From the NCBI GenBank assembly GCA_047602425.1, contig JASGHG010000001.1, forward strand, positions 768,001 to 832,000: a stretch of 64,000 nucleotides of DNA, read 5' to 3'. Shown here piece by piece: positions 10,322 to 29,455 of this stretch. How positions within the stretch are numbered: the stretch's first letter is position 1; the number at the start of each line of letters is the position of its first letter. The notes under the pieces were generated by a model. That model did not search any database. It worked only from the letters and a program-made list of their open reading frames with translations, and had not been told where the DNA came from. The DNA comes from Nibricoccus sp. Its GTDB lineage: Bacteria > Verrucomicrobiota > Verrucomicrobiia > Opitutales > Opitutaceae. A program made the translations under genes and the position numbers.

Positions 10322-11639
10322 ATGCCCGACCTCGGCTCCAAAGTCGCCGCACCCCCGAAGCCGCGGTCAAACTATCCCAAAAAAGAGCGGAGTATTCTAA
10401 AACTCCTCGGGCCGGGACTCGTCACCGGCGCGGCCAGCGACGACCCAAGCAGAATCGCTACATGCTCTCAAGCGGGCGCCCAATTTGGATACACCACGCT
10501 CTGGACGATGCTGCTGTCCTACCCGCTGATGAGCGCAGTGCAAATGATCAGTGCGCAAATCGGCCGCGTCACCGGGCATGGGATTGCCGGCAACATGCGG
10601 CAGATTTGCCCGCCGTGGTTTTGCGCCGCCATGGTCGGGGCGGTGATTTTGGTCAATATCGTCAATATCGCGGCCAATGTTTCCGCGATGGGCGCGAGCC
10701 GTCGCCCTCGTCGCGGGCGGTCCAGCGCCTCTCTATGGCATCGCGCTATCAGTCGGCTCGCTCCTTCTTCAAGTCTGTATGCCGTATAGTCGTTATGTAA
10801 AGGTGCTGAAATGGCTGTGCCTGGTGCTGTTCAGTTACGTCGCGACTGCTTTTATTATAAAGATTCCTTGGCGGACAGCTTTGATATATACGTTCATCCC
10901 GCATTGGGAACTCACGCCGGAATTCCTCACCGTGATCGCCGCCATCTTTGGAACCACCATTAGTCCGTATCTATTTTTTTGGCAGGCTTCCCAGGAGGTT
11001 GAGGAGGTGCGAATCAATCGGGACGTCAAACCGCTGACCAAGGACCCGTCGCATGCTTCCGTTCACTTTGGCAGGATCGAAATGGATACCCGCGTCGGCA
11101 TGGCGATCTCCAATCTTGTGGCCTACTTCATCATCCTCACCGCGGCCGCCACGCTCCATGCCACAAATACGGGCGAACTGAAATCCGCGGCGGACGCGGC
11201 CCAGGCGCTCAAGCCCGTCGCGGGGACATTCGCCTTCGTTCTCTTTTCGCTGGGCATCGTGGGCACGGGCTTCCTGGCTTTGCCGGTGCTGGCCGGTTCG
11301 GCGGCGTATGGCTTGGCGGAGTCGCTCGGTTGGAGAAACAGCCTAGAAGTAAAACCCGTTCGGGCCAAACGATTCTATTTCGCACTCACCGCGGTCATGC
11401 TTGTCGGAACCGCGCTGGTTTTCGTCCCCATCGATCCGATCAAGGCGCTTGTCTGGGCCGCCGTCCTGAACGGGTTGATCGCGCCTCCCTTGATGGCCAC
11501 GATGATGATGATTGCTGCAAATCGTTCGCTGATGAAATCCTTTGTGCTGCCACCGCGACTAAAGGCCGTGGGCTGGATCGCAACCGCGACCATGACAGCC
11601 GTCGCCGCCCTCATTGTTGGCGGGTGGTTTTCGCGTTGA
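10322..11639 (+). pseudogene. NRAMP/MntH-like divalent metal transporter, frameshifted near 10697
   Basis: ORF 10322.. has GPGLVTGAASDDPS..SQAGAQFG and IGRVTGHG; ORF ..11639 has GTTISPYLFFWQ. Removing one base in ATG GGC GCG A GCC GTC joins them into about 438 aa. Confidence 0.8.
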
Positions 11640-13614: not shown

Positions 13615-13689
13615 AGACTACGACAGACGCATCGATGGCGGAAACGTTCCGGTCCCACGCCGTGCGGATGGCCTATTAAATATACAATC

Positions 13690-14260: not shown

Positions 14261-14722
14261 ATGAAAAATATAAAACGCCCCACTTCCCTCTTTATAATCT
14301 CCCTGCTCCTGTCCGCGGCGTGCCCCTCTTGGGCAATCGTCGAAGAGCCGACTCCCGGCGCCGGGACGGCAACCACACCGACACCCGAAACGGCCACCGC
14401 ACAGTGGGATGAAATCAAAACTTCAACCTTCGACCAGAGGGAAAAATATTTCGCGGGCTTGAAAAAGCTTTCGGCCATTGTCGATGCGCAAGTCGACGAT
14501 CTACAAGCCAAACGCCGCATGCTGGCCAACCGGAGCGAAACCGTCGACTGGGATTTGGCGATCAAGGAATTTCTCACCACGCGCGATTACTTCAAATCGT
14601 TGTCGCGCGATGCGACAAAGGCGACGGTGAACGATTGGGATCAAACGAAGGAAAAAGTCACCCAGGCGTGGACCCAAGCCCAGAGCGCTTATGACAAGGC
14701 GCGGTTAAGTACGCCCAAATGA
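14261..14722 (+). CDS. Exported helical hypothetical protein
   Basis: Signal peptide ending in A-x-A-like site, Pro/Thr linker, amphipathic helices with periodic Trp (QWDE, DWDL, DWDQ, AWTQ). Confidence 0.7.
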   Translation: MKNIKRPTSLFIISLLLSAACPSWAIVEEPTPGAGTATTPTPETATAQWDEIKTSTFDQREKYFAGLKKLSAIVDAQVDDLQAKRRMLANRSETVDWDLAIKEFLTTRDYFKSLSRDATKATVNDWDQTKEKVTQAWTQAQSAYDKARLSTPK

Positions 14723-14781
14723 CGGTCCGTTGGTAGTCGAAAATATGCGCGTATTGGATGCGCATTCTCGATCGCGCGGGC

Positions 14782-14951
14782 TAGAGCATTTTTAAAAATG
14801 TCATAGCCGGACAACTCCGGCTGTAGGGGCGCAGTCTTGCTGTGCCCGGTTTGGCTCCGCCTCAGAAAGGATGCAGCTAGACTGCGCCCCTACGAAGACA
14901 GCTCGGTTTGTAACACCGATTTACGGCTACAGTTTTATTGTGTGTGCTCTA
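14782..14951. repeat. About 170-bp REP/MITE-like palindromic element between convergent genes
   Basis: Terminal TAGAGCA (14782-14788) / TGCTCTA (14945-14951); internal GTAG-type inverted repeat GTAGGGGCGCAGTCTTGCTG (14823-14842) / CAGCTAGACTGCGCCCCTAC (14874-14893), 19/20 match. Confidence 0.7.
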
Positions 14952-15017
14952 ACGGCTGGCGATTAATATTGAGCAGTCTTCGGAACTGCTCTTCACCGCC
15001 AAAACTTTTCCGCCTTA

Positions 15018-15746
15018 TTAATCTTCGATGGCGTTTTCCAAACGCGCCCAACGGATGGCGTGGCGCAACAAACCTGCGCCGTTTTTGAGGTTCAATTTGA
15101 TTTTCAGATGCTCGCGGTAGGAATCGATGGTCTTCGGACTGAGTTTCAGTCGGCGTGCGATTTCCTTCGTCGTAAAGCCGTTTCCGATCAGCTGAAAGAC
15201 CTCGATCTCGCGGTCGCTCAAAGTATCGAGCGGAAAATCGGCTTCTTCTTTTTTCCCCTGGCTGAGCAAACTGGCGAGCAGGTTCTTCTGCATCAGTTCG
15301 CTCAAATAAATACCACCTCCGAGGATCGTCCGAATGGCGGGAAGAATGTGTTCGGTCGCTTCCTTTTTCATTAAATACCCGCGGGCGCCGGCACGCAACG
15401 CCCTCTCCGCGTACACACGCTCGTCGTGCATCGACATCGCCAGGATGTTCAACGTCGGCATCAGCGCCAGGACGTTTTTGATGAGCTCAATGCCATTGCT
15501 CGTCTTGAGGGAGATATCCGTGACGAGGACCGAGGGACGTGCATTGGGAATGGAACTGAGCGCGGTCGGTGCATCGTCCGCCTCGCCGCACACGGTGAGA
15601 TCCGGCTCGCGATTGATGATCGCACTCAAACCGGCCCGGGTGATGGGATGATCCTCCACGATGAACACGCGATGTGTCTTGGTTTCTGTTTCGGCAGTAT
15701 TTTCCGGCGTGGCCACGTCGCCAATATTTTGTGTTTTTGTGCTCAT
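15018..15746 (-). CDS. NarL/LuxR-family DNA-binding response regulator
   Basis: VFIVEDHP..VTDISL..SMH..GYLMK receiver; LSDREIEVFQLIGNG..KEIA..LSPKTIDSYR HTH; start set at ATG 15746. Confidence 0.93.
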   Translation of the reverse strand: MSTKTQNIGDVATPENTAETETKTHRVFIVEDHPITRAGLSAIINREPDLTVCGEADDAPTALSSIPNARPSVLVTDISLKTSNGIELIKNVLALMPTLNILAMSMHDERVYAERALRAGARGYLMKKEATEHILPAIRTILGGGIYLSELMQKNLLASLLSQGKKEEADFPLDTLSDREIEVFQLIGNGFTTKEIARRLKLSPKTIDSYREHLKIKLNLKNGAGLLRHAIRWARLENAIED

Positions 15747-15772
15747 GTTTCGTAAGATGTCAGGGGAAAGCC

Positions 15773-16597
15773 TCAGGCTTTCGCGCTTATATGTTCTGTT
15801 TGAGACGAGAGGTAGCTGATAAGTTTTTGCGGTGTCATCGACTGTCGCGCTTCTTCCTCCTCGACGGATTCCCCTTCGCGCGCGACGACCGGTAGTATCA
15901 GTGTGAGGGTGCATCGGGCGCCCGCCTTGCCCTCATCGCTTCTGATGTCCAGTTGTCCTCCCAACAATCGAGCTAGCTTTGCGGCTGTATAAAGCGTCGT
16001 GCCTTTGCTCGGTGGAGAATGTTTCGCTGGAAAATGACTGAGCGCCTTTTGAATTGCTTCGCCGCCGATTCCATCTCCCGCATCGCTCACGGAAATCTCT
16101 ACATTGTTTCCACGGCGCACACATGAAACCCCGACGGTGGCGCCGCGCGGACTTCGCGCAATGGCGTTTCCAACCATGCTGCCCGCGACTTGTTTCAACC
16201 GGCGCGGGTCCGCCAACACGATCCCCACCTCTGGGTCTAGATCTCCGTGCAACTTCAGCGCCATATCGTCCGCCAATTGTTTGAAGTTTTCGATGACGCC
16301 CGACAGCACCTCCGCAAAGTCCACTCGTTCCGGTTTCAAGACCACGCGGCCCGTGGCAATGCGCGAGGTGTCGACGATATCCTCAATGATCGCAAGTTGC
16401 TCCTCCACGCATTCGCGAATCGCCTGCAAACCATCTCTCAGTTCCTGCGGCGGCACTTCGTCCTGCTCCGACAGAACCTTCGTCCAGAGAAGGATCGCCG
16501 ACAGCGGTGTCCCGAGGTCGTGGGAAATGCTGGTCAGGAGTCCGTGGGTGATGTCAGCCACCTCACTGGCGGCTGGCGGATTTACCGTTGGGTTCAT
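15773..16597 (-). CDS. Sensor-less histidine kinase-like protein (HisKA plus degenerate HATPase)
   Basis: SHDLGTPLSAI, DPRRLKQV..MVGNA, VSDAGDGI; G2 box replaced by SKGTTL; start set at ATG 16597. Confidence 0.8.
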   Translation of the reverse strand: MNPTVNPPAASEVADITHGLLTSISHDLGTPLSAILLWTKVLSEQDEVPPQELRDGLQAIRECVEEQLAIIEDIVDTSRIATGRVVLKPERVDFAEVLSGVIENFKQLADDMALKLHGDLDPEVGIVLADPRRLKQVAGSMVGNAIARSPRGATVGVSCVRRGNNVEISVSDAGDGIGGEAIQKALSHFPAKHSPPSKGTTLYTAAKLARLLGGQLDIRSDEGKAGARCTLTLILPVVAREGESVEEEEARQSMTPQKLISYLSSQTEHISAKA

Positions 16598-16880
16598 GAT
16601 GGTTATCGTGTTTTCCTGCCAAACGCAGGCTGAGCAGCGGTTTGATGATCTTGAAAATTGACGAACCAAGCGCCATGCTTCTCGCCAGTTGGCCGATCCG
16701 GCCGGGGAAATATTGCGTGACGGACAATGCCCGGCCGATCGCGCGGGCGGACAGTCCCGCGATAAGCGGCTCCGGTTCGGGAGGAGGTTGCAGCACAAGC
16801 TTCAGATAAAGCCGGTCCAACTCGCAGATGAGCGCGAGCTGATGGATGCGTTCTTCAGCATTGACCTTAGGCGTCGCCAT
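16563..16880 (-). CDS. Hypothetical protein, YqjK-like position
   Basis: RIHQLALICELDRL; follows ElaB- and YqjE-like genes as in yqjDEK. Confidence 0.55.
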   Translation of the reverse strand: MATPKVNAEERIHQLALICELDRLYLKLVLQPPPEPEPLIAGLSARAIGRALSVTQYFPGRIGQLARSMALGSSIFKIIKPLLSLRLAGKHDNHHEPNGKSASRQ

Positions 16881-17307
16881 TTCCGTTGGGGGTTTGTTTT
16901 GGCTGGGGGGTCAGCAGGTTTTGCAGGCAATCGCTGTCGCTGCGAAGTTGCCTGCGAGTTTCCAAAAAAGGCCGCCAGGCGCGAATGCGGTACGCCGCGA
17001 GCCAGATCATCGAACCACCGACTAAAAGATAACCCAAGGCCACCAATCCAAGGATCAGCGTGCGCTCCGGCATGTCCCAGACCATGGCCGCGATCATAAA
17101 GGTGGCGGCAAAACCACCCAGCAGGAACAACGCCGCCGCGACGAGCGCCGCCACCACGGTGAGAAGCGCATGGTGGGAAAGTTGCGAAAGTTCAAGCGCC
17201 ACAAGTTCGCCCCTGTGAACAGCCCCCCCGAGGAATACTTTCAGGGCGGGCACAATCTGGCCAAGTCCTATGTTCGGCAGGGGCGAAGTTGTGGTCGCGT
17301 TGTCCAT
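16867..17307 (-). CDS. YqjE-like (phage holin family) membrane protein
   Basis: RGELVALEL, two TM helices, PFLETRRQLRSD. Confidence 0.8.
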   Translation of the reverse strand: MDNATTTSPLPNIGLGQIVPALKVFLGGAVHRGELVALELSQLSHHALLTVVAALVAAALFLLGGFAATFMIAAMVWDMPERTLILGLVALGYLLVGGSMIWLAAYRIRAWRPFLETRRQLRSDSDCLQNLLTPQPKQTPNGNGDA

Positions 17308-17337
17308 TTGGAACGGGCGTTTAGCGCAAGCGTATGT

Positions 17338-17664
17338 TTAGTTTCGCGAGCAGCTGCGTGCGATAAAATAGCCAACGAGCAGGCCCGTGGCCGTCGCAAT
17401 GCCGATCGAGGCGTAAGGATTCGCTCGCACGAGCTCGTCGGCTTTCGCCGCCTGCCTGCGCGCCATCTCCGCCGCCTGACTCAGCGTATGCTTGCTTTCC
17501 TCGTATGCACTGCGCAGGCGATCGCGCAGGCCCCTCACCTCCTCACCTGCCTCGGCGCCAACGTTTGCCAGCGCCTTTTCCGCCTCGCGGATCAAAGCCT
17601 TGAGTTCATCCACCGTGTGACCGGCGTGTTCGTTCATTGTAGTGTCAGCCATAAGTCCTTTCAT
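17338..17664 (-). CDS. ElaB/YqjD (DUF883) tail-anchored membrane protein
   Basis: ELKALIREAEKAL...ADELVRANPYASIGIA..GLLVG C-terminal anchor. Confidence 0.9.
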   Translation of the reverse strand: MKGLMADTTMNEHAGHTVDELKALIREAEKALANVGAEAGEEVRGLRDRLRSAYEESKHTLSQAAEMARRQAAKADELVRANPYASIGIATATGLLVGYFIARSCSRN

Positions 17665-17681
17665 ATTTTTTAGTTTTATAT

Positions 17682-17885
17682 TTACGGCGAACGCCTCGAA
17701 AAAAGCACGAGGCCGCCCACCAAGATTCCTGCAATGCCGCCAATGATAAGCCCGAGGCTTTTGTCGGTCGGTGTCCCGCTCACGGCTTTCGTCACCGAGG
17801 AGGACAGTGAGTTGGCGGAGTTCAATCCGTAAACCAACAGTATTGCTCCGACGACCAATATAACAATTGCGATCATTTTATACAT
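17682..17885 (-). CDS. DUF3185-family small membrane protein
   Basis: MYKMIAIVILVVGAILLVYG..SLSSSVTKAVSGTPTDKS..LIIGG; start at 17885. Confidence 0.8.
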   Translation of the reverse strand: MYKMIAIVILVVGAILLVYGLNSANSLSSSVTKAVSGTPTDKSLGLIIGGIAGILVGGLVLFSRRSP

Positions 17886-17905
17886 ATTCACTCCGATTTT
17901 GGATT

Positions 17906-18055
17906 TTATCCCAACGGTTTCCGCCCGCTGAACAACCTGACCAACACCACCACAAAAGCAACCAGCAGCAAAAGGTGAATGTATCCACCCAATGTATACG
18001 AAGACACCAAGCCTAGCAGCCAAAGAACGATCAAGATGACAGCGATTGCTTCCAT
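17906..18055 (-). CDS. lmo0937-family small membrane protein
   Basis: MEAIAVILIVLWLLGLVSSYTLGGYIHLLLLVAFVVVLVRLFSGRK. Confidence 0.88.
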   Translation of the reverse strand: MEAIAVILIVLWLLGLVSSYTLGGYIHLLLLVAFVVVLVRLFSGRKPLG

Positions 18056-18082
18056 GATGAGGGGCGTTGCGCATTCTGCTTT

Positions 18083-18099
18083 CGCAACAATGGTGCCAA
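18083..18099 (-). promoter_or_regulatory. Sigma54 (-24/-12) promoter for the leftward operon starting at 18055
   Basis: Minus strand TTGGCACCATTGTTGCG: GG-N10-GC, close to consensus TGGCACG-N4-TTGC. Confidence 0.8.
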
Positions 18100-18174
18100 A
18101 TATCACGCCAATGCGTTTCTTGTTTATTTTTAATGCCTTACAAACAATCCACTATTCGACGCATGCTTGAAAGG

Positions 18175-18218
18175 CTGCATTTTGCCCGCAGGGCGCCCCT
18201 CGGGTTCGCAATTTGCCA
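18175..18218. promoter_or_regulatory. Candidate enhancer (UAS) pair for a sigma54 activator
   Basis: Cores GCATTTTGC (18177-18185) and GCAATTTGC (18208-18216), 31 bp apart, 80 bp from the promoter GG. Confidence 0.6.
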
Positions 18219-18422
18219 TGTCTGGATGAGGAAAATCTCCGGTGCTCCACCGAGAAACCGTCCCGCTGTACGGGGAGAAAGGGACGTGATACCGAGTGCA
18301 AACGCTCACGCTGTCGGTTGCCCTCCCGTTTTTGGTGGGACCGCCTCAAAAAATTTGACGAACTACTAAACGTACCCAACTCAGCACCGCCGGCACAAGC
18401 AGACCGCTCGGCCTTCAAATGT

Positions 18423-19448
18423 TCATGGACTGCTTTGCGTGGGAAATTCGAGATAGAGCTCCTGCCGCTCGTCGGTGAGTTTGCTCCCGGTTCGTCCACC
18501 TTGAGCCACGACAAGCGCCTTGCAGATCGCCAGTCCAAGATCGGCGCCGGCGGGTCCTTTCCTGAGGCCGAAAGTTTCAGCCGCCCGGCTTTTCCGGTCT
18601 AAGGAGCCTTCGGTGCGCGCCGGACAGCTCACTCCGATTCGCAGCCAATTTTCGCCGACCGAGAGTGAAACAGAAATATTTTCCCCGCGTTGGCTAAGGA
18701 GCGCCGTATTCTTCAATAATTCCGCGAGCGCCCGTTCGACTTTACCAACGTCTATATACAAGCGAGGAAGTTCTTCCGTCGGAGCATGAATAACGACCTG
18801 CTGCGCGTTGCGATCAAACAACGGCCGGGTTTCCGCCAAGGGATTGGCCAACAGCATCGACGGCTCGACCAGCGTGCGCGTCAGAGCTTCCTGCCCGCTC
18901 TCGATCAGGAAGATCTCATTAATTTGCTGCACGAGTCGGAGCATATTCTCGCAGTCGTCGCGGCTGGCCTCGATCAATTCACGCTGTTCCGGCGCGAGCG
19001 CGCCCAGTTTTTCCTCCAACAAGAGGTGAAGCGCCATGCGAATGCTCGTGATCGGAGTTTTCACTTCATGACCCAGCAAGGCAAACGCCCGCGTCGTGGA
19101 GCGGCTCGCCTCCCACAAACCCGATACTTCCGAGAACAAAATCGTCCAGCCCTCGCCAGACTCTGAAAATTGTGGAAGAAAAAAACGGGCGTCGGGTTCG
19201 CGGCCCATCTGAACCACAAATTCCCGATCACTAGACCAAGCAGTGCGCCGGCCGGCTTTCAGTGCGTCCAGCTGTTCCAGGATCACTTCATTCGCCGTGC
19301 GTTCGCCAAAATCCCCGTGAGCGATTGCCTCCGCGGCCGCATTCGAAACCAAAACCACACGATCAGCACTAATGATAAAACACGGCGCCGGAAAATCCGC
19401 CAACAAGACTGTTCCTCCGCCCGCCTCGTTGACGCCGGCTTTGCTCAT
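18423..19448 (-). CDS. KinB-like cytoplasmic histidine kinase, ATP-binding domain degenerate
   Basis: PAS-like start; GHEVKTPITSIRMALHLLLE; ELLKN; DLGLAICK; no DxGxG; overlaps the activator stop codon. Confidence 0.8.
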   Translation of the reverse strand: MSKAGVNEAGGGTVLLADFPAPCFIISADRVVLVSNAAAEAIAHGDFGERTANEVILEQLDALKAGRRTAWSSDREFVVQMGREPDARFFLPQFSESGEGWTILFSEVSGLWEASRSTTRAFALLGHEVKTPITSIRMALHLLLEEKLGALAPEQRELIEASRDDCENMLRLVQQINEIFLIESGQEALTRTLVEPSMLLANPLAETRPLFDRNAQQVVIHAPTEELPRLYIDVGKVERALAELLKNTALLSQRGENISVSLSVGENWLRIGVSCPARTEGSLDRKSRAAETFGLRKGPAGADLGLAICKALVVAQGGRTGSKLTDERQELYLEFPTQSSP

Positions 19449-20815
19449 GTCGCGGCCACCTCAACAGCCGCATTTGCCGCCGCCGCCCAGCGCTTTCGTT
19501 TTCGATAAAGCGTCGCAACGTCCTTGCCAAGAATCGCAGCAGCCTCCTCAAGTTTGACGGTGCGCGCAATCACCCGGCGAACGTGTTCCTGCTCGATGGC
19601 CTCGAGCGAGACCAGCGCGCCGAGTTCAACGACGCCTGACTGCGTCGAGGCAGAAAGCTCCACCGGCAAATCGCCCAGCTCCACACGGTCGCCGTGCGAT
19701 AGAATTACCGCGCGCTCGATGGCGTTTCTGAGTTCACGGAGATTTCCCGGCCAAGTGTGCGCTTTTATTGCCGCCCATGCTTCCGGGCTAAATTCTTTAA
19801 CCGCACGGCCAGCGTCGTCGGCGAAAAACCGCAGGAAGCTCAATGCCATTTTGGTAAGATCCATCGGACGCTCGCGCAGCGGTGGAACCGTCACCGATAT
19901 AACATTGAGTCTATAATATAAATCTTCGCGGAAGGCTCCCATTTTCACCGCAGCCCCTAGATCGCGATTTGTCGCGGCGATCACGCGCACGTCCGCCACG
20001 CGCGATTTGGTGTCGCCCACTCGTTCGTACGTTCGCTCTTGTAGCAGGCGCAGAAGCTTGGGTTGGAGTTCGGGCGGAAGTTCTCCGATTTCGTCGAGAA
20101 AAAGCGTGCCGCCCCGAGCCGCTTCCACTTTTCCCCACTTGTCCTTTACCGCACCGGTGAACGCACCCTGCACATGGCCGAACAATTCGCTTTCCAAGAG
20201 CTCCCGGGAAAGACTCGGGCAACTCACGGTCACGAAAGGACCATCCGCCACGGCACTGCGTTCGTGCACATGTCTCGCCAAAAGACTTTTGCCGGTGCCG
20301 TTTTCTCCCAGCACCAAAATGGTGGCGCGCGTGTTAGCTGCACGTTCCAACACCTCCACAACATTTTTCATCTTGCTGTCGACAGGCGAAAAATCCGGCG
20401 GCGGAGCGGTGCGCGTGACTTGCTCGGCCAAGCCCTCCGCTTTTTGACGAAGCCGCTGGGTGCGTTCCACGCGCTCAAGCACCGTTCGCAGCTGTTCAGG
20501 GGTGAAAGGTTTTTCCAAATAGTCCGTCGCGCCCCGGCGGATTGCTTCAACCGCGGTATGAATACTCGCATGCGCCGTGCTAATGATAATGGCAATTCCC
20601 GGGGCAATTTTTTGCAAACGCGCAATATAATCCAAGCCGTCTGCCTCGCCTTCCAAATGAAGATCGAGCACCACCAGGTCGTAGCGATCCTCTTGTAATT
20701 TCAATACAGCCACCCTGCCACTGTCAGCCATGCCCGCTTCGTGCCCTTCGGCGCGAACCGCATGAGACAATGCTATACGAATCGGTTTTTGGTCGTCGAC
20801 GATGAGAATACGCAT
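19445..20815 (-). CDS. Sigma54-dependent response regulator (NtrC/AlgB-like: REC, AAA+, Fis HTH)
   Basis: MRILIVDD, Walker A GENGTGKS, ESELFGHVQGAFTGA, Walker B LFLDEIG, FREDLYYRLNV, WPGNLREL, EAAAILG..ATLYRKRK. Confidence 0.95.
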   Translation of the reverse strand: MRILIVDDQKPIRIALSHAVRAEGHEAGMADSGRVAVLKLQEDRYDLVVLDLHLEGEADGLDYIARLQKIAPGIAIIISTAHASIHTAVEAIRRGATDYLEKPFTPEQLRTVLERVERTQRLRQKAEGLAEQVTRTAPPPDFSPVDSKMKNVVEVLERAANTRATILVLGENGTGKSLLARHVHERSAVADGPFVTVSCPSLSRELLESELFGHVQGAFTGAVKDKWGKVEAARGGTLFLDEIGELPPELQPKLLRLLQERTYERVGDTKSRVADVRVIAATNRDLGAAVKMGAFREDLYYRLNVISVTVPPLRERPMDLTKMALSFLRFFADDAGRAVKEFSPEAWAAIKAHTWPGNLRELRNAIERAVILSHGDRVELGDLPVELSASTQSGVVELGALVSLEAIEQEHVRRVIARTVKLEEAAAILGKDVATLYRKRKRWAAAANAAVEVAAT

Positions 20816-21147
20816 GCTGTGTGGAGTCCGGTCTGATCGACAGTGTTGTAGTGCCATTAATGATACATGATGCGGCGTCCGCCCGGAAACCGATGATAAA
20901 AACTGAGAACGTTTGCCGCAAAAGTCAAAAGAACGGTCCACAATTACGAACCAATCCCGCGAGTTTTTTTCCATCCCTTTGGTTTCGTATTTGCGATTGC
21001 CGTCGCTGGAATATTTTTCGCGCCGCGCAAAATTAACCGCGATCCGATTGATATTGTTCACGCTTTTTCGTGGCTCGAAATCGTGTGAATTCTGGCGCGA
21101 CGTCCCCGTCATAAAAATGACTTCTGCCTCCTCGACTTCGGAGTCGC

Positions 21148-21191
21148 TGGCAATTTGCCAAATCGAGTGAAACAAGCGCTGCAATTCGCCC
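21148..21191. promoter_or_regulatory. Candidate enhancer (UAS) pair for a sigma54 activator
   Basis: Palindrome TGGCAA-T-TTGCCA (21148-21160) and GCAATTCGC (21181-21189), cores 31 bp apart, 81 bp from the promoter GG. Confidence 0.6.
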
Positions 21192-21267
21192 GGTCAAAGC
21201 CCCCGGAAGTTCTCCTAGCCGTCTTTTAACCGTTTATGGCAAAGAGCGTTACATCTCCAACCTTGGG

Positions 21268-21284
21268 TTGGCATGCGACTGGCG
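21268..21284 (+). promoter_or_regulatory. Sigma54 (-24/-12) promoter for the rightward operon starting at 21332
   Basis: TTGGCATGCGACTGGCG: GG-N10-GC; -12 box has TGGC instead of TTGC. Confidence 0.62.
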
Positions 21285-21331
21285 TAGATCGAAAGCGAAC
21301 CCGACTCACGTTGCGAAATTTACCGACCATC

Positions 21332-22009
21332 ATGACTCGTTCTGCCCGATTCAAATCCGCGATCCACGCCTTTACCTGGTTCGTCTTCGCTCTGCTGCTC
21401 GTCGTCGACACGGCTCCCGTCCTTGCGGCCGGAGACGCCGCTGTTTCCGAACAGGATGCCGCGAAGGTTTTGCTGCAAGATTTGGACTATCAGCTCGCCC
21501 GTTTGGAAAAACTGCAGGAGAGCCTCCAAACCAAAGACGAGCGGGCGATTGCCGAAACGCGGTTGGCTGCATTCAGGGAGCGACGCATCGACCTCCGTAA
21601 AAAGTTCAATCAAGCCGGATATGAAGTGCTCAAAGCCGACGTGGCGGTGGAGCAGGCGCGCTTGTCCGCAGATATTGCCAGAGCCACGACGAGCGAGGGA
21701 ACCAGTGACGCTGTTCCACAAAAAGTCGATTTGGTACTGCCGGGAAAAATCGAAAACGTCCGCGCGGCATCGGGCGAAAAAATCAATGCACCTCAGATTC
21801 CCGCCCTGCTCGCTTCGCTCGAAACCGAAATCATCGAGCTGGAAAAAAGAGTGAATCAGATGCCCATCAGCACCGAGCGCGATGCAACAAAACGACGCGT
21901 ACAAATGCTGCGCGACCGCAGCGTGGATCTAACGACGGCCTTTGACAAAAGGCGCTATGACCTTCTCCGGGCCGACGTGAAATCCGAATGGGATACTGTC
22001 ACGCGGTGA
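21332..22009 (+). CDS. Exported hypothetical protein with a duplicated helical domain
   Basis: Signal peptide (..APVLAAG); two similar segments, ER..AETRL..FRERRIDLRKKF..YEVLKADV and ER.ATKRRV.MLRDRSVDLTTAF..YDLLRADV. Confidence 0.7.
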   Translation: MTRSARFKSAIHAFTWFVFALLLVVDTAPVLAAGDAAVSEQDAAKVLLQDLDYQLARLEKLQESLQTKDERAIAETRLAAFRERRIDLRKKFNQAGYEVLKADVAVEQARLSADIARATTSEGTSDAVPQKVDLVLPGKIENVRAASGEKINAPQIPALLASLETEIIELEKRVNQMPISTERDATKRRVQMLRDRSVDLTTAFDKRRYDLLRADVKSEWDTVTR

Positions 22010-22129
22010 CGTTCACGAACCACTCCTTGTAACCATACCGACTTACTCGACCCACGGCATTTTTTCCAACACCGCCATTCTCCCACCATTCGGCGAGCCG
22101 AGCCCCCAACCCTCCCAAAAAACATACTC

Positions 22130-22789
22130 ATGCAAGTCCTCAAAACTTCCAGCGCCGCCCCCGCCGCACACTGGGATCGCACGGCCACCCCCGCCGCCAC
22201 AAATCACAATCTGTGCGATTTCTTCATCCAGGAACTCGCCGGCACGTTCGCCAGCGCCGATGCAATTCTCGCTTCAGCTGAAGCCCTCGAAAATTGGATC
22301 CCCGCCTACCATGCCGCACTTCGAGGCACACTCGGAGAAGTGGCCAAAACCGCGCGCCACTGCCGACGCGAACTGTGCAACACCCTCGATCACCATCGTA
22401 TTCACATCTTCGCTACACCGAGCCCGGCCATCGTCGCGCTCTTGGAAACCATGGAGCCGGGACGCCGCGAAAATCTCTTCGAGCCCTGGGGCGTTTTCGG
22501 CACGCGTATGATCTCAATTTTCAGAAAGGCGGCGATGCAGATGGAACTTCAGGCATCCGACCTTTCCGAGTACGCCTACTTGCTTGGTTTGGACGCCCTG
22601 TGGGAGCCACTCCGGGAACGCGCCAACGAATGGTCGGCGTGCGCGGCACTTTTGCATTCCAAAAAGACCAGCTTCTGCGCGGAGGCTTACATGGGAGGAG
22701 CCGGCAAAGCCCTTCAAAAACCTGTTTCGAAACACAACCATAACCCACAACTAAAATCACCATGTTACGCTGGATTATCATATTCCTAG
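22130..22789 (+). CDS. Divergent ferritin-like (DUF892-related) protein
   Basis: [17 protein letters not shown].. parallels the DUF892 N-terminus; four-helix pattern ..SEYAYLLG; metal ligands poorly conserved. Confidence 0.5.
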
Positions 22790-22929
22790 TCGTCGCCTTG
22801 ATCGCAGGATTGCTCGGGTTCACCGGCATTGCCGGAACCGCCGCATCCATTGCTCAGATACTCTTCTATATCTTCCTGGTCCTTCTGGTTGTCTCCCTTT
22901 TGGCCGGCGTGATCCGGGGAGGCTGGTGA
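22762..22929 (+). CDS. DUF1328 / YtjA-family small membrane protein (55 aa, not in ORF track)
   Basis: [55 protein letters not shown]. Confidence 0.92.
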
Positions 22930-22970
22930 CCGGCCGGCCATAGCTCTGAACACAAAACCAACCAACGTTT

Positions 22971-24122
22971 ATGTCCAACTACCCTAAACTCATTTCTTTC
23001 GCGCTGACGACGTTCGCCATCGCGCTTTCCGCGCAAGCCGACTCGAAAAAGACCAAGCCCGAGACTGTCGATGAGGTTTCCGCCCAGAAGATGGGCATGG
23101 CCCACAAGAGTGGGGACATCATTGGCCTCAACGTTGATAACAACAATGGCGAGACGCTCGGCCGCGCCATGGATCTGGCCATTGATCTTACCCGCGGTAC
23201 GGTGGTTAGCGTCATTGTCGGCACTGGTGGGCTCCTGAGCAATTCGGATTACATCGCGATTCCGCCCAACCAGGTCGGCCTTGGAGCAAGCCACAAGGCT
23301 CTCATCGTGAATTCCACGCGGGAAAAACTGAAAAGCGCGCCAACCTTCAACGCCGATCAATGGCGTGAGTTCTATTCGACAAACCGTTGGACTGAGTCCG
23401 CCAAATTCTTCGACAGCCCGGATCGATTGGCGTCCGAACCCGCCAACATCCAGCGCGCGACAAAAGTCGTCGGGATGACCGTGAAGAATAAGCAGGACGA
23501 AAAAGTCGGATCGGTGGAGAACCTCATGGTCGATTTGAACAATAAAAAGATCATAGCCGTGATCGTTTCATCGGGAGGATTTTTGGGAATTGGCGACACA
23601 TTGAGCGCTGTTCCTCCCCGACTCTTTACCTGGGATGCTGAGAATAATGCGCTTCAGCTCGATACGACGAAAGAGGCGCTGCAGCAGGCCCCACATTTCA
23701 AGCAAGGCGAGTGGCCGGATTTTTCCCAAGCCGCCTATGTCGATGGCGTATACCGCGCCTACAATCTCGATGTGAACTCCGAATATAACGAAAAAAACGC
23801 AGACGCGAATAACACCGCCCGCAACACCACTCGTGATCGCGAGAGCCAAAGCATCACGCCTTTGGATCAGGGTAACAATCCCAGCGATCTTCACATCACT
23901 CAACAGATCCGCAAAGCGATCGTGGAAAACAAATCGCTCTCGCTCACGGCGCAGAACGTAAAGGTGATCACCGTCGACGGCCAGGTCACACTTCGCGGTC
24001 CGGTTCGCACCGCTGAAGAAAAACGCATCATCGGCGACATCGCCTCACGCACGGTTCCTCAAGGCAAAGTCGAAAACCAATTGGAGGTCACCCAAGCCGC
24101 CTCGTCTCTGACAGAAATGTAA
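22971..24122 (+). CDS. Exported protein with two PRC-barrel domains and a C-terminal BON domain
   Basis: Signal peptide; GDIIGLNVDNNNGETLG..DLAID and TKVVGMTVKNKQDEKVG..GGFLGIG; DQGNNPSDLHITQQIRKAI..NVKVITVDGQVTLRGPV. Confidence 0.88.
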   Translation: MSNYPKLISFALTTFAIALSAQADSKKTKPETVDEVSAQKMGMAHKSGDIIGLNVDNNNGETLGRAMDLAIDLTRGTVVSVIVGTGGLLSNSDYIAIPPNQVGLGASHKALIVNSTREKLKSAPTFNADQWREFYSTNRWTESAKFFDSPDRLASEPANIQRATKVVGMTVKNKQDEKVGSVENLMVDLNNKKIIAVIVSSGGFLGIGDTLSAVPPRLFTWDAENNALQLDTTKEALQQAPHFKQGEWPDFSQAAYVDGVYRAYNLDVNSEYNEKNADANNTARNTTRDRESQSITPLDQGNNPSDLHITQQIRKAIVENKSLSLTAQNVKVITVDGQVTLRGPVRTAEEKRIIGDIASRTVPQGKVENQLEVTQAASSLTEM

Positions 24123-24148
24123 ACCAAAACCATTAAAAAGATATAGTC

Positions 24149-24721
24149 ATGTCTAAAAAATCTGTATTCTGCATTGCGAACTCCTACGTCCAGGCCGAGC
24201 GCATCATCGACCGGCTCAAGGCGGAGAATTTCCTTCACGACGACATTTCGGTTCTATTTCCCGACAAGGAAAGCACCCGCGATTTCGCGCACACTAAAAA
24301 TACCAAGGCGCCGGAGGGAATCACCGCGGGCGCGACGACCGGCGGCGTGATCGGCGGCGCGCTCGGCTGGATTGCCGGCATCGGCGCCCTCGCCATTCCG
24401 GGCGTCGGTCCGTTTATTGCAGCCGGACCGGTTATGGCCGCGCTCAGTGGCGTGGCGGCCGGAGCGACCGTTGGCGGCATCGCGGGCGGGTTGATCGGCC
24501 TCGGCATTCCCGAGATCGAGGCAAAGCGGTACGATGGAAAAATCCGCAAAGGAAACATCCTGATCTCCGTGCACGCCGAAGATTCGAAGTCGCTCACGCG
24601 CGCAAAGGACATCTTCAGCGAACTCGGCGGCGAGGACATTTGCAGCACCAGCGAGGCCGGTGCGCCACGGCAGGACAAAGCTTCGAATCGCACCACCGTC
24701 TCCGGTCCCTCGCCGTTTTAA
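24149..24721 (+). CDS. General stress membrane protein with glycine zipper
   Basis: DISVLFPD, GGVIGGALGWIAGIGALAIPGVGPFIAAGP, GIPEIEAKRY. Confidence 0.82.
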   Translation: MSKKSVFCIANSYVQAERIIDRLKAENFLHDDISVLFPDKESTRDFAHTKNTKAPEGITAGATTGGVIGGALGWIAGIGALAIPGVGPFIAAGPVMAALSGVAAGATVGGIAGGLIGLGIPEIEAKRYDGKIRKGNILISVHAEDSKSLTRAKDIFSELGGEDICSTSEAGAPRQDKASNRTTVSGPSPF

Positions 24722-24877
24722 TCGTCCTTTCCTTTAAGTCCGTCACCCGTCGGCCAACGCTCAAACATATCGGGCATCTCCTCGGTAAAGGGATGTAGAG
24801 CGTGTCCGACGGGTGCCGGCCCGGAAGGGTCATGATATATACACTTTAAATGACTAATTATATAATTGTTACGCTAA

Positions 24878-25495
24878 GTGATTCCGCCGGGGACCGGGCT
24901 CATGGCTGACGTATCCGCACAAGCAAACCTCAATACCCCCAACCAGCACGTCGACTCGCCCGTTGCGCCCACGTGGGATGAAGCGTTTTTGAGAGTGGAA
25001 AGCTATCTGAGGGCGTACGGTCTCGAAAGCCGGATGCGTCTCAATCAAATTACTTCAGAAATCATCCAGACCGCCCAATCGATTTGGCATCATGAAAATG
25101 GTTCGTCACCGGTCCTTCTTTCAATGCAGGTGACGAGGGAAAAAATTGACGGTTGGCTGACCAAGATTGACCTGCCCCCGGAATTCACGAGCGAACGTAC
25201 CACCGCCGAAGCGCGAATCGCCCTGATCCTCGCCGATCTTCCCGGGCGCTGGTCGGACCACTTTCTCAATTCGGGAGCGCTGCCCGCACCGTTCATGAAT
25301 TCCATTGGAACGACGCGAGTCCTGCCAACTCCCGAAATGTGCGTAAGCAGCATGCCGCCCGCGCCTCTGAATCTCGGCACAGAGGGAACGGAGACTACCT
25401 TCGCGCTTCCTTCCATGAGCGGATTTCCCCACGCAGCATTAACCTGGATAACCATACTGAGTTTTTTCTGCACAGTCTGGGCGGCCAGCCACTAA
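24878..25495 (+). CDS. Hypothetical protein coupled to opgH (possible detached OpgH N-terminal region)
   Basis: WDEAFLRVESYLRA; PTPEMCVSSMPPAP; C-terminal TM; 1 nt before the opgH ATG. Start may be 24902. Confidence 0.7.
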   Translation: MIPPGTGLMADVSAQANLNTPNQHVDSPVAPTWDEAFLRVESYLRAYGLESRMRLNQITSEIIQTAQSIWHHENGSSPVLLSMQVTREKIDGWLTKIDLPPEFTSERTTAEARIALILADLPGRWSDHFLNSGALPAPFMNSIGTTRVLPTPEMCVSSMPPAPLNLGTEGTETTFALPSMSGFPHAALTWITILSFFCTVWAASH

Positions 25496-25496
25496 C

Positions 25497-27662
25497 ATGA
25501 CTGGCCTGCACGACCTCACGTTGCTACCCCGAGTCCAGGTCTCGCGCCGTCGGCACGGCGTGATCACCATTTTGCTCCTTCTCACGTGTCCGGCGGTGAT
25601 GACGATGGCCGATCTCCATTGGCGGACCGGTTACGATGGATGGAAAATTTTTCACCTCGTGCTGTTCGCCCTCCTTTTTCCCTTGGTGGCATTGGGCGCA
25701 ACGCAAGCGATCATGGGCTTCGCGATCAGACGCAAGGGCGGCGATCCATTTCAAATCGGTAATTCGATTCCGGCCGAAGGCGGTGAATTGCTCACCGCTC
25801 CGACTGCAATCGTTATGCCCATCTGCAATGAAGAGGTGGGCCGCGTCATCGATGGGCTGCGCGTCATTTACGAATCGCTGGAGAAAAGCGGCCAGATTGA
25901 ACATTATCATTTTTTCCTGCTGAGCGATTCCAGCAACACGAACCGTTGGATTGAAGAAGAGGCCGCCTGGCTTGCGTTGATCAGGAAACTCGACGCCCAT
26001 GGACGGATCTTCTACCGGAAACGCCGCCTCGGCATTAACAAAAAGGCCGGAAACCTCGCGGACTTTTGCCGGAAATGGGGGAAGCTTTACCGATACATGG
26101 TGGTTTTAGATGCGGACAGCATCATGACGTCGACCGCGATCACCCGCCTGGTGGACCTGATGGAACGCAATCGCCGCGTGGGAATCATCCAGGGCATGCC
26201 GCTGCTGGTGAATGGCGAAAGCGTGCTGGCCCGCCTTCAACAATTCGCCAGCCGGCTCTATGCTCCCGTCGGCGCGGCCGGCCTCAATTTCTGGTGCTTG
26301 AGCGAAGCCAATTATTGGGGACACAACGCCATTATCCGGCTCGCGCCTTTCATTCGTCATTGTTCCCTGCCCTCTTTGCCGGGCGATGGACCGTTCGGCG
26401 GAAGAATTCTCAGTCATGACTACGTCGAGGCCGCGCTCATGCGGCGCGCAGGCTGGCAGGTATGGCTGGCGCCCGACATCGACGGCAACTATGAGGAGTG
26501 TCCGCCTTCGATCATCGATCTGGCCCAGCGAGATCGGCGTTGGCTTCAGGGTAATCTGCAACACGCGCGGCTGATCTTCGCCAAAGGATTTCACATCGTA
26601 AATCGGATCCATTTTATACTCGGAATACTCTCCTACCTTGCGTCGCCCTTGTGGCTCGCGTTGGTCATCGCGTCGACGGTCATTGCCGCGAATATTGCCT
26701 CCAACGGTCTTGCGCTGCGCCCCGTGGCGAGTTTCGCCCAATATCTTCACTGGAGTTATACTCAGCAGGCGGTTTGGCTCTTTATATATACCATGGGGCT
26801 TCTATTTTTGCCGAAATTTCTTGCGCTATGGGATCTTCGAAAACGCGTTTCCGAGATTGAAGGTTTTGGCGGATGGGGCGCCGTACTCAAAAGCGTGGTT
26901 TTGGAAACCCTCGTATTCACCCTGCTCGCGCCTGTGCTCATGCTTTTCCACACGTGGTTCATTTTCAATACCCTGAGCGGTCAAAAGGTTTCCTGGGGCG
27001 CGCAGCGCAGAGGCGGCGACTCGGCTTGGGCCGAGTCTTGGGCGGCCCATGGACTACAAACCTTTCTGGGGCTGGCCGCGGCCTTCGTGGTTATACAAAT
27101 CAATCTGACGCTGGCCGCCTGGATGGCACCGATGTTGCTCGGTCTTATATTCTCAATACCGCTCTCATATATTACAGGCTCGGTGCGTCTAGGAAAAATG
27201 CTCAGACAATATGGCTATTTTCAAACCACCGAAGAAACACAACCGCTGCCGGAAATATCCCAACTGGCGAGCATGCGGGCTTCGCGGGACAATGGAACTC
27301 CGCCGGCAGGAATCTTGCAGCCACACTACGGATTGCTTCAAGCCGTGCTCGACCCCTACGTCAACGCCGCGCACGTGTCACTCCTCCGCTCAAAGGATGA
27401 TCCGCCCGCGAAATCCCGCGAACGGTTTCAATTTTTGCGAGCGCTCTTGATCGATGAGGGCCCCCAAGCGCTGACTCATCACGAGCGATTATCCCTGCTG
27501 CTCGATGCGGAATCGATGCATACGCTGCACCACGAAATATGGTCGCTGCCGTCCTCGCAGCTTGCGGATTGGTGGAAACTGGCCCTTCAGCACTATGCCT
27601 ACGTAGCTCCGCCGCCGGTGACACCTTTTACCGCCGCTGCCGAACCAAGCCCAACAGGTTAA
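25497..27662 (+). CDS. mdoH: Osmoregulated periplasmic glucan glucosyltransferase OpgH/MdoH (GT2)
   Basis: MPICNE, LSDS, KAGNLADFC, VLDADSIM, NYWGHNAIIR, ILSHDYVEAALMRRAGW, RDRRWLQGNLQH. Confidence 0.95.
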   Translation: MTGLHDLTLLPRVQVSRRRHGVITILLLLTCPAVMTMADLHWRTGYDGWKIFHLVLFALLFPLVALGATQAIMGFAIRRKGGDPFQIGNSIPAEGGELLTAPTAIVMPICNEEVGRVIDGLRVIYESLEKSGQIEHYHFFLLSDSSNTNRWIEEEAAWLALIRKLDAHGRIFYRKRRLGINKKAGNLADFCRKWGKLYRYMVVLDADSIMTSTAITRLVDLMERNRRVGIIQGMPLLVNGESVLARLQQFASRLYAPVGAAGLNFWCLSEANYWGHNAIIRLAPFIRHCSLPSLPGDGPFGGRILSHDYVEAALMRRAGWQVWLAPDIDGNYEECPPSIIDLAQRDRRWLQGNLQHARLIFAKGFHIVNRIHFILGILSYLASPLWLALVIASTVIAANIASNGLALRPVASFAQYLHWSYTQQAVWLFIYTMGLLFLPKFLALWDLRKRVSEIEGFGGWGAVLKSVVLETLVFTLLAPVLMLFHTWFIFNTLSGQKVSWGAQRRGGDSAWAESWAAHGLQTFLGLAAAFVVIQINLTLAAWMAPMLLGLIFSIPLSYITGSVRLGKMLRQYGYFQTTEETQPLPEISQLASMRASRDNGTPPAGILQPHYGLLQAVLDPYVNAAHVSLLRSKDDPPAKSRERFQFLRALLIDEGPQALTHHERLSLLLDAESMHTLHHEIWSLPSSQLADWWKLALQHYAYVAPPPVTPFTAAAEPSPTG

Positions 27663-29455
27663 GTTTCGCTGCGTTCCTCCGCCGGGCCCACGGTCTTGGG
27701 ATTGAGATTGTGCGCAGTGTTGATCAATCCCACGTGGGAAAAGGCCTGCGGCACATTCCCGAGTTGCCGTTTGGCGACCGGATCGTACTCCTCCGCCAGC
27801 AAGCCAACGTCATTACAAAGGCGGACGAGCCGTTCGAAAAGCGCCGAGGCGTCAGCGGACCGACCCATCAGATAGAAACAATCCGCCAGCCAGAAGGAGC
27901 ATGGCAGAAACGCGCCTTCACCGGGAGGCAGGCCGTCGACATCGCCCGACTCGGCGGTGCGATAACGCAGGACAAAGCCGCCCGACATTAATTCCTTCTC
28001 AATCAATTCCACGGTCGACACCATGCGCGGATCCCGCGCCGGGAGAAAACCTACCAGCGGCATCATCAGCACGCTCGCGTCGAGTTCGGCGGAGCCGTAA
28101 AACTGCGTGAATGCGCCTCTGGCTGTATTGAAACCCTGGTTACAGATTTCGTCGTGCATTTCCGCGCGCACCGATTTCCATCGCTCCACATCGCCCGAAA
28201 GTCCAAATTGCTCGACTGCCTTCACCGCGCGATCCAGCGCGACCCAGGCCATGACTTTCGAGTGGGTAAAGTGGCGGCGAGGTCCGCGAATTTCCCAGAT
28301 GCCTTCGTCGGGCTTTCGCCAATGCTCGATGACGAACTCGATCAAATGCTTTTGCAGATGCCACGAGATGTCATCTGTTTTCATCCCCGCAACGCGCGCT
28401 GCATGCATGGAGTCGATCACTTCGCCATAAACATCAAGCTGGAACTGCGAGGACGCGGCATTCCCGATTCTCACGGGTCGTGAATTTTCATAACCTTTCA
28501 AATGATCCAACTGAAACTCGGGCAGCGTCCTTTCCCCCGCCAGACCGTACATGATCTGCAATTTCGCCGGGTCGCCCGCCACCGCGCGCAGCAGCCACTC
28601 GCTCCAAGCGCGCGCCTCGTCGGTATACCCCGCTGACATGAATGCGTACAACGTGAAGGTCGAATCCCGCAGCCAGCAAAAACGATAATCCCAGTTGCGC
28701 ACTCCCCCGATAAACTCCGGGAGCGACGTGGTCGCCGCGGCCACGATTCCGCCGGTTGGCGCGTACGTGAGCGCCTTCAAGGTCAACAGCGATCGCATCA
28801 CCGCCGGACGCCAGCGGCCTCGGTAGGTGCAGCGTAACGCCCAGCTTTCCCAAGCGTTTCGCGTCCGTTCAAACGCGCGCCCCACGTCGATGAGCGCGAC
28901 TGGCGCTTCGTGGGAGGGATACCAGGTCAGGGCGAAGGCTTTTTTCTGGCCTTCGGCGATCGTGAAACGCGCAACGCTCGAAAGATCCTCGCCGTGAACA
29001 GGAACGTTGGAGCGAAGCGTCAATCCGTTCGGACCGGCAACCGCCAGCAGACTGCTTTCATCGAGATGCCGAACCCATGGAACTGTCTGGCCGTAGTCGA
29101 ATCGCACCGTCATTCGCATCTCCATCGGCACCACGCCTTTTATGCCTTCAACAATGCGCACGACTTCCCGATAGGGGCCTTCGATGGACATGAAATCCAC
29201 AATTTTCATCACGCCGCCTTCCGTGGTGAACTCCGTTTCCAAGATGAGCGTGTTCCCGAGATACGCGCGTTTCGTCTGCACAACGGGCACCGCCGGTGCG
29301 ATCCGCCAGAAGCCATTGCTCTCGTCGCCAAGCAAAGAGGCGAAACAGGCCTCTGAACCAAATCGAGGCGCGCAAAACCAGTCGATGGAACCGTTCAGGC
29401 CGACCAGGCATACCGTGTGCATGTCGCCGATCAAGGCGTAGTCTTCGATTTTCAT
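27659..29455 (-). CDS. GH15 glycoside hydrolase (trehalase/glucoamylase-like)
   Basis: IEDYALIGD, AAATTSLPE..GGVRNWDYRFCWLRD, QLDVYGE, PDEGIWE, GLLAEE, PQAFSH. Confidence 0.93.
   Translation of the reverse strand: MKIEDYALIGDMHTVCLVGLNGSIDWFCAPRFGSEACFASLLGDESNGFWRIAPAVPVVQTKRAYLGNTLILETEFTTEGGVMKIVDFMSIEGPYREVVRIVEGIKGVVPMEMRMTVRFDYGQTVPWVRHLDESSLLAVAGPNGLTLRSNVPVHGEDLSSVARFTIAEGQKKAFALTWYPSHEAPVALIDVGRAFERTRNAWESWALRCTYRGRWRPAVMRSLLTLKALTYAPTGGIVAAATTSLPEFIGGVRNWDYRFCWLRDSTFTLYAFMSAGYTDEARAWSEWLLRAVAGDPAKLQIMYGLAGERTLPEFQLDHLKGYENSRPVRIGNAASSQFQLDVYGEVIDSMHAARVAGMKTDDISWHLQKHLIEFVIEHWRKPDEGIWEIRGPRRHFTHSKVMAWVALDRAVKAVEQFGLSGDVERWKSVRAEMHDEICNQGFNTARGAFTQFYGSAELDASVLMMPLVGFLPARDPRMVSTVELIEKELMSGGFVLRYRTAESGDVDGLPPGEGAFLPCSFWLADCFYLMGRSADASALFERLVRLCNDVGLLAEEYDPVAKRQLGNVPQAFSHVGLINTAHNLNPKTVGPAEERSET

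Follow-up and report, generated by a model that had tools for sequence, protein, structure and literature searches.

In a 64,000-nucleotide stretch of the Nibricoccus sp. genome (Verrucomicrobiota, Opitutaceae; contig JASGHG010000001.1, positions 768,001 to 832,000; hereafter the window), the genes for an AlgB-family sigma-54 activator and a KinB-like protein are enclosed by two outward-facing elements, each composed of two short boxes followed by a −24/−12 motif. As judged from sequence and spacing, each flank is very likely a sigma-54 promoter that has a pair of activator sites and precedes general-stress genes. An AlgB-family activator, probably that encoded between the flanks, is considered with good confidence to bind the boxes and would thereby switch on two general-stress operons.

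Paired boxes and sigma-54-type promoters at the two flanks

Both promoter motifs have the form GG-N10-GC in a TGGCA context, and each faces a gene (Table 1). The box period is 31 bp in both flanks, and the proximal 9-bp core is separated from the −24 GG by 79 bases on the left and 80 bases on the right. One of the right-hand boxes is embedded in a perfect 13-bp palindrome, TGGCAA-T-TTGCCA, at 21148-21160. All promoter strings and cores quoted in the initial annotation (cores at 18177, 18208, 21150 and 21181), as well as the palindrome and the 31-bp interval on both sides, are present in the sequence, and its value of 80-81 bp to the −24 GG is close to the exact intervening distance and reflects inclusive counting. 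When the flanks are aligned on the GG, both boxes, a TAA-N4-TT at −43 and the −24/−12 bases are common to them, and little else is.

A composite search of the 5.16-Mb genome returned five matches, of which the two flanks held ranks 1 and 2 (matrix scores 42.7 and 41.3); the matrices had been built from 95 elements of other genomes, although these elements were gathered with a pattern modelled on the two flanks themselves, and the independent tests are those of the next section. A genome-wide scan of the kind proposed in the initial annotation places the flanks first and second. Control scans with three wrong periods gave one match each (34.4, 30.6 and 24.8), and the reversed genome gave none. 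The 9-bp core is frequent in the genome, with 188 occurrences of GCAATTYGC, and pairs of boxes counted without a promoter show no excess at the 31-bp period (9 pairs, with 4-25 at other periods); only the composite stands out.

By its sequence, the flank box is the published AlgB site TGCA-N3-TGCA. In Pseudomonas aeruginosa, the dimA promoter contains two TGCANNNTGCA 20 bp apart, equal to a 31-bp period, and is shifted by AlgB; scrambling both boxes abolishes AlgB binding, and dimA induction needs algB, not algU (PMC12780092). The AlgB motif obtained by SELEX is ATCGTGCANNNTGCACGAT (PMC8041468 supplement). The consensus of 97 elements collected in the present analysis reads TGCA-N3-TGCA, with the outer-left T in 59 of 97 and 72 of 97, and binding of these pairs by AlgB-family proteins is predicted from the sequence match and from co-occurrence. 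The locus had been annotated initially as defining the binding site of its activator; a new binding site is ruled out by PMC12780092 and PMC8041468, where the box is already given as the AlgB site.

An AT-rich site lies between the boxes and the promoter in each flank, and on either transcribed strand a TAA-N4-TT starts 43 bases upstream of the GG. The left site matches the corresponding site of Pseudomonas elements (offset 41-42) in both position and orientation, and the right site scores 5/9 when read in the left/promoter orientation. In the family spacers, a match resembling the integration host factor (IHF) consensus is found at offset 42-45 in 16 of 97 cases, as compared with 1.05 in shuffles. 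The TTTTAA-N4-TTA reported initially in both spacers does occur at 18128 and 21224, but both copies lie on the plus strand and so are not mirrored. Mirrored sites of this kind are ruled out, the reverse-orientation signal at offset 45-48 being weak and post hoc (9 of 97, against as many as 7 in shuffles). Of the IHF-assisted looping invoked at the same time, the fixed-offset bend signal stands, but a classical two-subunit IHF was not found in the genome. The HU/IHF-family gene at C1:449379-449648 fits IHF models better than HU models, and is a candidate for a single-subunit IHF.

Table 1. Elements and genes of the locus, in window positions; transcription starts are predictions derived from sigma-54 geometry.
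Feature	Position	Strand	Remark
Left sigma-54-type promoter	18084..18099	minus	−24 GG 18097-18096, −12 GC 18085-18084 (TTGC at −12); predicted start ~18072
Left IHF-consensus-like bending site	18128..18140	minus	7/9 defined bases; 43 bases before GG
Left proximal AlgB-type box	18176..18186		core 18177
Left distal AlgB-type box	18207..18217		core 18208; 31 bp from left proximal box
Right distal AlgB-type box	21149..21159		core 21150; inside palindrome 21148-21160
Right proximal AlgB-type box	21180..21190		core 21181; 31 bp from right distal box
Right AT-rich putative bending site	21224..21239		7/9 on plus at 21224; TAA-N4-TT at 21227 mirrors left
Right sigma-54-type promoter	21268..21283	plus	−24 GG 21270-21271, −12 GC 21282-21283 (TGGC at −12); predicted start ~21295
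Holin-X-like membrane protein (PF07332)	16867..17307	minus	left promoter, likely same operon
DUF883 (ElaB/YqjD-like) protein	17338..17664	minus	left promoter, likely same operon
DUF3185 protein	17682..17879	minus	left promoter, likely same operon
lmo0937-family/DUF5670 membrane protein	17906..18058	minus	first gene under left promoter
KinB-like protein, 341 aa	18423..19448	minus	between the two elements
AlgB-family sigma-54 activator, 456 aa	19445..20815	minus	receiver Asp51, Walker A/B, GAFTGA, helix-turn-helix ending TLYRKRKR
225-aa protein, hydrophobic N-terminus, coiled-coil character, no family over cut-off	21332..22009	plus	first gene, right promoter
219-aa open reading frame, no family	22130..22789	plus	right promoter, likely same operon
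DUF1328 small membrane protein	22762..22929	plus	right promoter, likely same operon
PRC-barrel/BON protein	22971..24122	plus	right promoter, likely same operon
YflT-domain general stress protein	24149..24721	plus	right promoter, likely same operon

The holin-X-like membrane protein is presumably YqjE-like. A scan of window positions 14700-28000 for sigma-70 promoters and terminators performed no better than chance, and the operon limits are therefore not fixed. Elsewhere in the window, a third sigma-54-like motif at 10178-10193 on the plus strand (region 10100-10193) faces an Nramp gene; one good box lies 70 bases upstream of it, with no partner box at 31-33 bp. The Nramp-like transporter itself (10322-11639) is split over two overlapping frames (profile positions 1-82 and 80-355), by a frameshift or a sequencing error.

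Conservation in the family and in Pseudomonadaceae

Of 401 family genomes, 94 contain the composite pattern, as compared with 18 for the reversed-pattern control; in this and all other genome counts, kin are not independent. It occurs in 83 of the 220 genomes with an AlgB relative and in 11 of the 181 without, the latter being near the control rate (for the AlgB calls, only four candidates were scored per genome). Box-to-GG distances were collected for 106 elements, 90 loci being hand-picked from or returned by the family composite search and the rest lying around activators. The distances cluster at 78-83 (71 elements) and 89-92 (20 elements), with none at 85-88 and four at 71, within a genome search that covered distances 71-91 only; the box periods among these elements are 31, 32 and 33. 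The closest relative carries three elements with the 31-bp period and distances of 80-82, so that the phylogenetic comparison suggested in the initial annotation finds the spacing kept both there and across the family. Among 24 first open reading frames from hand-picked family representatives, 13 belong to DUF3185, DUF1328, DUF892, DUF883, PfpI, CsbD, DUF2383, BON, PRC, DUF2934 or DUF5670, eight to no family and three to other families. The small gene opening the conserved algB-paralogue operon likewise follows a composite element.

The mirror-image architecture highlighted in the initial annotation did not survive this comparison. In the loci of the enclosed clade, a divergent element lies upstream of the activator, within 1.2 kb, in 19 of 28 cases. 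Conversely, an outward element downstream of kinB is present in 2 of 28 loci only (this genome and G004; 22 had enough flank), and in 16 of 28 the element on that side is directed towards kinB instead. A conserved mirror design is thereby ruled out, and the arrangement is a matter of local gene order. In G004 (C1:1937289-1942572, L031), the lmo0937-DUF883 unit and its promoter are duplicated, with one copy on either side of the activator and both in the same orientation.

The three further composite matches of the present genome lie at C1:2072883 (ahead of the paralogue operon), C1:516917 (ahead of a 100-aa protein without family assignment) and C1:3318928. Relatives of the 100-aa protein (L263:5451-5750, minus strand) also follow an element in L072, L220, L252, L256, L257 and L262. 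The element at C1:3318928 precedes a 253-aa extracytoplasmic function (ECF) sigma gene, C1:3317995-3318929 (also L264, L276 and L401). A variant of the element, with AG[GT]T instead of TGC at −12, is present in 12 of 15 orthologue upstream regions, and a search of the 401 genomes with the variant pattern gave 42 (control 0), 38 of which have an AlgB relative. The ECF orthologue lies directly downstream of the variant element in 29 of 30 fetched loci, and the element distances are 78-82 (13 loci) or 91-94 (17 loci). These observations suggest a cascade from AlgB via sigma-54 to the ECF sigma factor. In addition, a paralogous ECF gene (C1:3902192, L293-L300) is preceded by a conserved GGAACA-N17-GTC, likely its own promoter. 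At C1 ~1479850-1480000 on the minus strand (L275), two good boxes 24 bp apart stand ~93 bases before a GG-N10-GC, upstream of a BON-DUF1328 pair; this box pair is a candidate off-period member.

An unbiased scan of all genomes for the box pair alone gave at least 122 loci. Among the matches listed, a sigma-54 motif faced away from the pair at 60-69 bases on 60 of 248 sides, and faced inward on none. Likewise among the matches listed, the motif was found at 66-69 bases in 63 of 66 Pseudomonadaceae loci (with a looser score; two loci overlap), and 68 Pseudomonadaceae elements gave 64 IHF-consensus matches at 41-42 bases upstream of the GG. The targets in these genomes (L081-L202) comprise BON/OsmY-like, DUF2383, DUF3509 and DUF1652 proteins as well as small exported proteins whose C-termini, like that of DimA, are aromatic; in a hand-picked set, 4 of 8 Pseudomonas first open reading frames encode BON or DUF2383 proteins. 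The small exported targets end in WVF, LVF or WIF, resembling AlgW-activating tails. In two of the four Pseudomonas genomes with algB located, an element lies just upstream of algB and points away from it, like the right-hand element here.

Published data on P. aeruginosa are in keeping with this picture. PA14_62680 and PA14_62690 are taken here to encode CsbD and BON proteins. Both are light-induced with and without dimA (PMC12780092), and AlgB peaks obtained by DNA affinity purification sequencing lie beside dimA, algB and PA14_62710 among the 16 top PA14 rows covered (PMC8599809). The phenotypes of kinB loss are RpoN-dependent (PMC12830090, citing Damron 2012). Neither RpoN nor sigma54 is mentioned in the main text and four supplements of PMC12780092 or in the main text of PMC8599809.

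Two alternatives concern the promoters themselves. That the flank motifs are chance matches in intergenic DNA, as the common core and the unenriched pairs might suggest, can practically be dismissed: the flanks have the two highest composite scores of the genome, G004 keeps the spacing while its spacer sequence has diverged, and the family and all-genome scans far exceed their controls. It is also conceivable, though quite improbable, that AlgB-bound boxes serve sigma-70-family promoters, the −24/−12 motifs being incidental or repressive. The precedent for this is algD, the classical AlgB target, which is transcribed via AlgU. AlgU control of the alg cluster is described in PMC10418997. However, the sigma-54 motif emerged at a fixed distance and orientation from a scan that did not require it, the distances are helically phased, GAFTGA is intact in the activator, and a simple scan gave no sigma-70-like site in either flank.

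The enclosed activator, its paralogue and the stress genes

The AAA+ domain of the enclosed activator scores 221 bits against PF00158, with GENGTGKS, LFLDE and GAFTGA all present, and its helix-turn-helix (HTH) ends in D-x-[AS]-TLYRKR. In a tree of 43 activators, it shares a 27-row clade with its paralogue and Pseudomonas AlgB (Shimodaira–Hasegawa-like approximate likelihood ratio 100; a quick tree of 43 rows with no bootstrap, the Pseudomonas rows being called AlgB from a KinB_sensor neighbour), and none of the nine other activators of the genome included falls within the clade. The Pseudomonas activators of the clade adjoin KinB_sensor genes in both cases tested. The gene for sigma-54, rpoN, is present once in the genome (a single PF04552 match). 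The paralogue (C1:2070941-2072263) has its own composite element and a full-length KinB partner with DxG box and HAMP domain, in which no KinB_sensor match was found.

The KinB-like partner in the window has kept the HisKA H-box, whereas membrane anchor, sensor and HAMP domain are gone and the ATP-binding domain is degenerate. In 25 other clade partners displayed (L353-L377), Asn or His-Asn stands in place of the G1-box Asp, and the paralogue's partner keeps DxG. An Asp-to-Asn change at that position stops ATP binding in this fold. The window protein is thus likely phosphatase-only or decaying, and a phosphatase-type role is reported for KinB (PMC6932827).

Which activator reads the flank boxes is indicated in part by their borders. 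G occupies 5 of the 8 border positions of the flanking boxes and none in the three distant elements, and across loci the G:T ratio is 27:24 beside activators with Val, Ile, Leu or Thr in the helix as compared with 25:64 and 7:20 beside others, a comparison confounded by descent. This pattern lends weak support to the enclosed activator. The initial assignment of the flanks as direct targets of this protein remains likely, but it is not unique, because the second AlgB-family gene has nearly the same recognition helix (DPATLYRKRQK, as compared with DVATLYRKRKR) and an element of its own.

The genes under the flanks belong to typical protective stress-gene families. The regulons of RpoS, SigB and PhyR-NepR-EcfG contain DUF883/ElaB, DUF892/YciF, CsbD, PfpI, BON/OsmY, DUF1328, lmo0937 and YflT proteins. 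No NepR match was found in the genome, and no SigB-class match among the 4 of 42 sigma candidates that were classified. In total, the genome has 42 sigma-70 region-2 matches and six SpoIIE phosphatase domains, and a second RpoD/RpoS-like sigma factor of 360 aa scores 311.8 bits, below the RpoS cut-off of 378.7. The initial annotation had proposed a general-stress response started by sigma-54 rather than by RpoS or SigB; its first part is in keeping with the stress genes behind sigma-54 motifs, but its second part is unproven, the 360-aa sigma factor being present and most stress genes of the window having no element.

Several observations, in addition to the kinship among the genomes counted, weigh against the proposed regulation. 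The strict composite is missing from 137 of the 220 genomes with an AlgB relative. In the genome studied, yciF, pfpI, treY/glgX and a Dps/BON operon have no element, which an ECF relay would explain. The ECF promoter has TGGCAC at −24 but AGGT at −12, and one boxed ECF orthologue sits in G023, where no AlgB match was obtained although the genome is 98% complete. The ECF-type promoter GGAAC-N16/17-CGTY, considered as a second tier of control, has 197 matches with no excess over other spacers; its one match in the window, GGAAC-N16-CGTC at 13650 (minus strand), 36 bases before DUF421, is not above chance. As for the bend, ihfA and ihfB were not found, each of five genomes (5/5) having one PF00216 (HU/IHF) gene, and the single gene reaches none of the IHF and HU cut-offs (at best 69.6 of 111 bits for IHF). 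No phytochrome PHY domain (PF00360) was found in the 99.97% complete genome, and the Pseudomonas kinase, a bacteriophytochrome, is therefore missing here; light input via phytochrome is ruled out. Finally, an HTH-turn residue that is Ile or Val in 27/27 orthologues is Lys in the enclosed activator, and its truncated KinB partner has 47 departures from near-invariant columns. These last two features indicate that the local system may be decaying and that the paralogue may do the work.

The distant, intact paralogue could accordingly be the main reader of the flank boxes, with the enclosed pair accessory or decaying. In addition to the Lys residue, the truncated KinB and the barely different recognition helices, the split Nramp gene nearby points in this direction, as do composites in G002 and G003, where only the paralogue clade was matched. 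This alternative is nonetheless judged unlikely. The enclosed activator has only seven departures from near-invariant columns, equal to its G004 orthologue, the strict composite is present in 21 of the 27 other genomes with the enclosed clade, and the G borders are confined to the flank boxes when compared with the three distant elements. Somewhat more credible, yet still doubtful, is the view that the AlgB/sigma-54 regulon is one branch serving envelope or desiccation protection under another master sigma factor, e.g. the 360-aa protein or an ECF factor. The near-RpoS score of the former, the numerous sigma-70 region-2 and SpoIIE matches and the many stress genes without an element favour it. 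Conversely, in relatives the element stands directly before yciF, pfpI, csbD, DUF2383 and BON genes, it also precedes the conserved ECF gene, and SigB and NepR matches are missing as stated above.

Proposed mechanism and comparison with known systems

Control of the two operons by the AlgB-family activator, the reading preferred here, would proceed as follows. Some kinase would phosphorylate the receiver Asp of the activator, two dimers of which may then occupy the boxes on one face of the DNA, three helical turns apart. Bending of the DNA at the AT-rich site (43 bases upstream of the GG), possibly by the single HU/IHF-family protein, would loop the dimers onto the sigma-54 holoenzyme, whereupon the GAFTGA ATPase would open the promoter and both operons would be transcribed. 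The KinB-like partner, lacking the ATP-binding Asp, may reset the activator by dephosphorylation. Boxes elsewhere would drive the paralogue operon, as feedback, the small gene of no family and the conserved ECF sigma gene, and the ECF factor might relay the response to stress genes without boxes.

A broader proposal is put forward tentatively, with slightly less than even confidence. It holds that AlgB-family activators are masters of a fourth general stress response, started by sigma-54 and common to Verrucomicrobiota and pseudomonads; that a family cascade runs from AlgB via sigma-54 to the conserved ECF factor with a deliberately weak −12; that Pseudomonas follows the same logic via DimA and AlgU; and that the box-bend-promoter code marks the long-sought genes, dimA included, that P. 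aeruginosa AlgB controls directly via sigma-54. If true, sigma-54/AlgB would be a fourth stress route next to RpoS, SigB and EcfG. The proposal addresses the circumstance that AlgB has the sigma-54 contact motif, although a different sigma factor transcribes its classical target. A model from 2019 shows as unknown the genes by which AlgB exerts its repression of biofilm and virulence (PMC6932827). The fixed code of two boxes, a bend site and −24/−12 at 66-69 bases nominates candidate direct AlgB targets in pseudomonads, and the present model would be the first regulatory one of stress protection for a common, little-studied family of soil and freshwater bacteria.

AlgB, its box, sigma-54 enhancers and the stress genes are all known parts, and their combination is what appears to be new. 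A literature search of titles and abstract starts, covering few subscription papers, found neither AlgB boxes with sigma-54 promoters nor a verrucomicrobial stress regulon. The initial annotation knew of no description of this arrangement; the box itself is published, and its combination with sigma-54 stress promoters did not turn up in the literature searched.

Sigma-54 promoters of the NtrC, NifA and XylR type consist of a −24/−12 motif and paired upstream palindromes in helical phase, with an IHF or AT-rich bend between them. The flanks described here share all of these features, but their output is general-stress genes and not a metabolic operon, and no two-subunit IHF was found. With RpoS, SigB and PhyR-NepR-EcfG, the system shares its target families; the promoter class differs, being sigma-54 with an ATPase activator, and matches to SigB or NepR were not obtained. 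In the Borrelia Rrp2-RpoN-RpoS pathway, a sigma-54 activator similarly transcribes a second sigma factor, which there is RpoS and serves host adaptation (PMC4014564, PMC3037356), whereas here it would be an ECF factor with a non-canonical −12 and AlgB boxes.

The closest parallel is the BphP-AlgB-KinB system of P. aeruginosa, with which the locus shares the activator clade, the HTH end, an operon with a KinB-like protein, a phosphatase-type partner, the box sequence, two boxes at 31 bp and an element beside algB. In contrast to that system, the genome has no PHY domain, no KinB_sensor match and two AlgB paralogues, and the partner in the window has no membrane sensor domain. The available parts of the P. 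aeruginosa AlgB texts (PMC12780092, PMC6932827, PMC8041468, PMC8599809) name no sigma-54 promoter behind the boxes. The box-promoter distance is ~80 or 91 here instead of the 66-69 of Pseudomonas, and the predicted targets are classical general-stress genes together with an ECF sigma gene.

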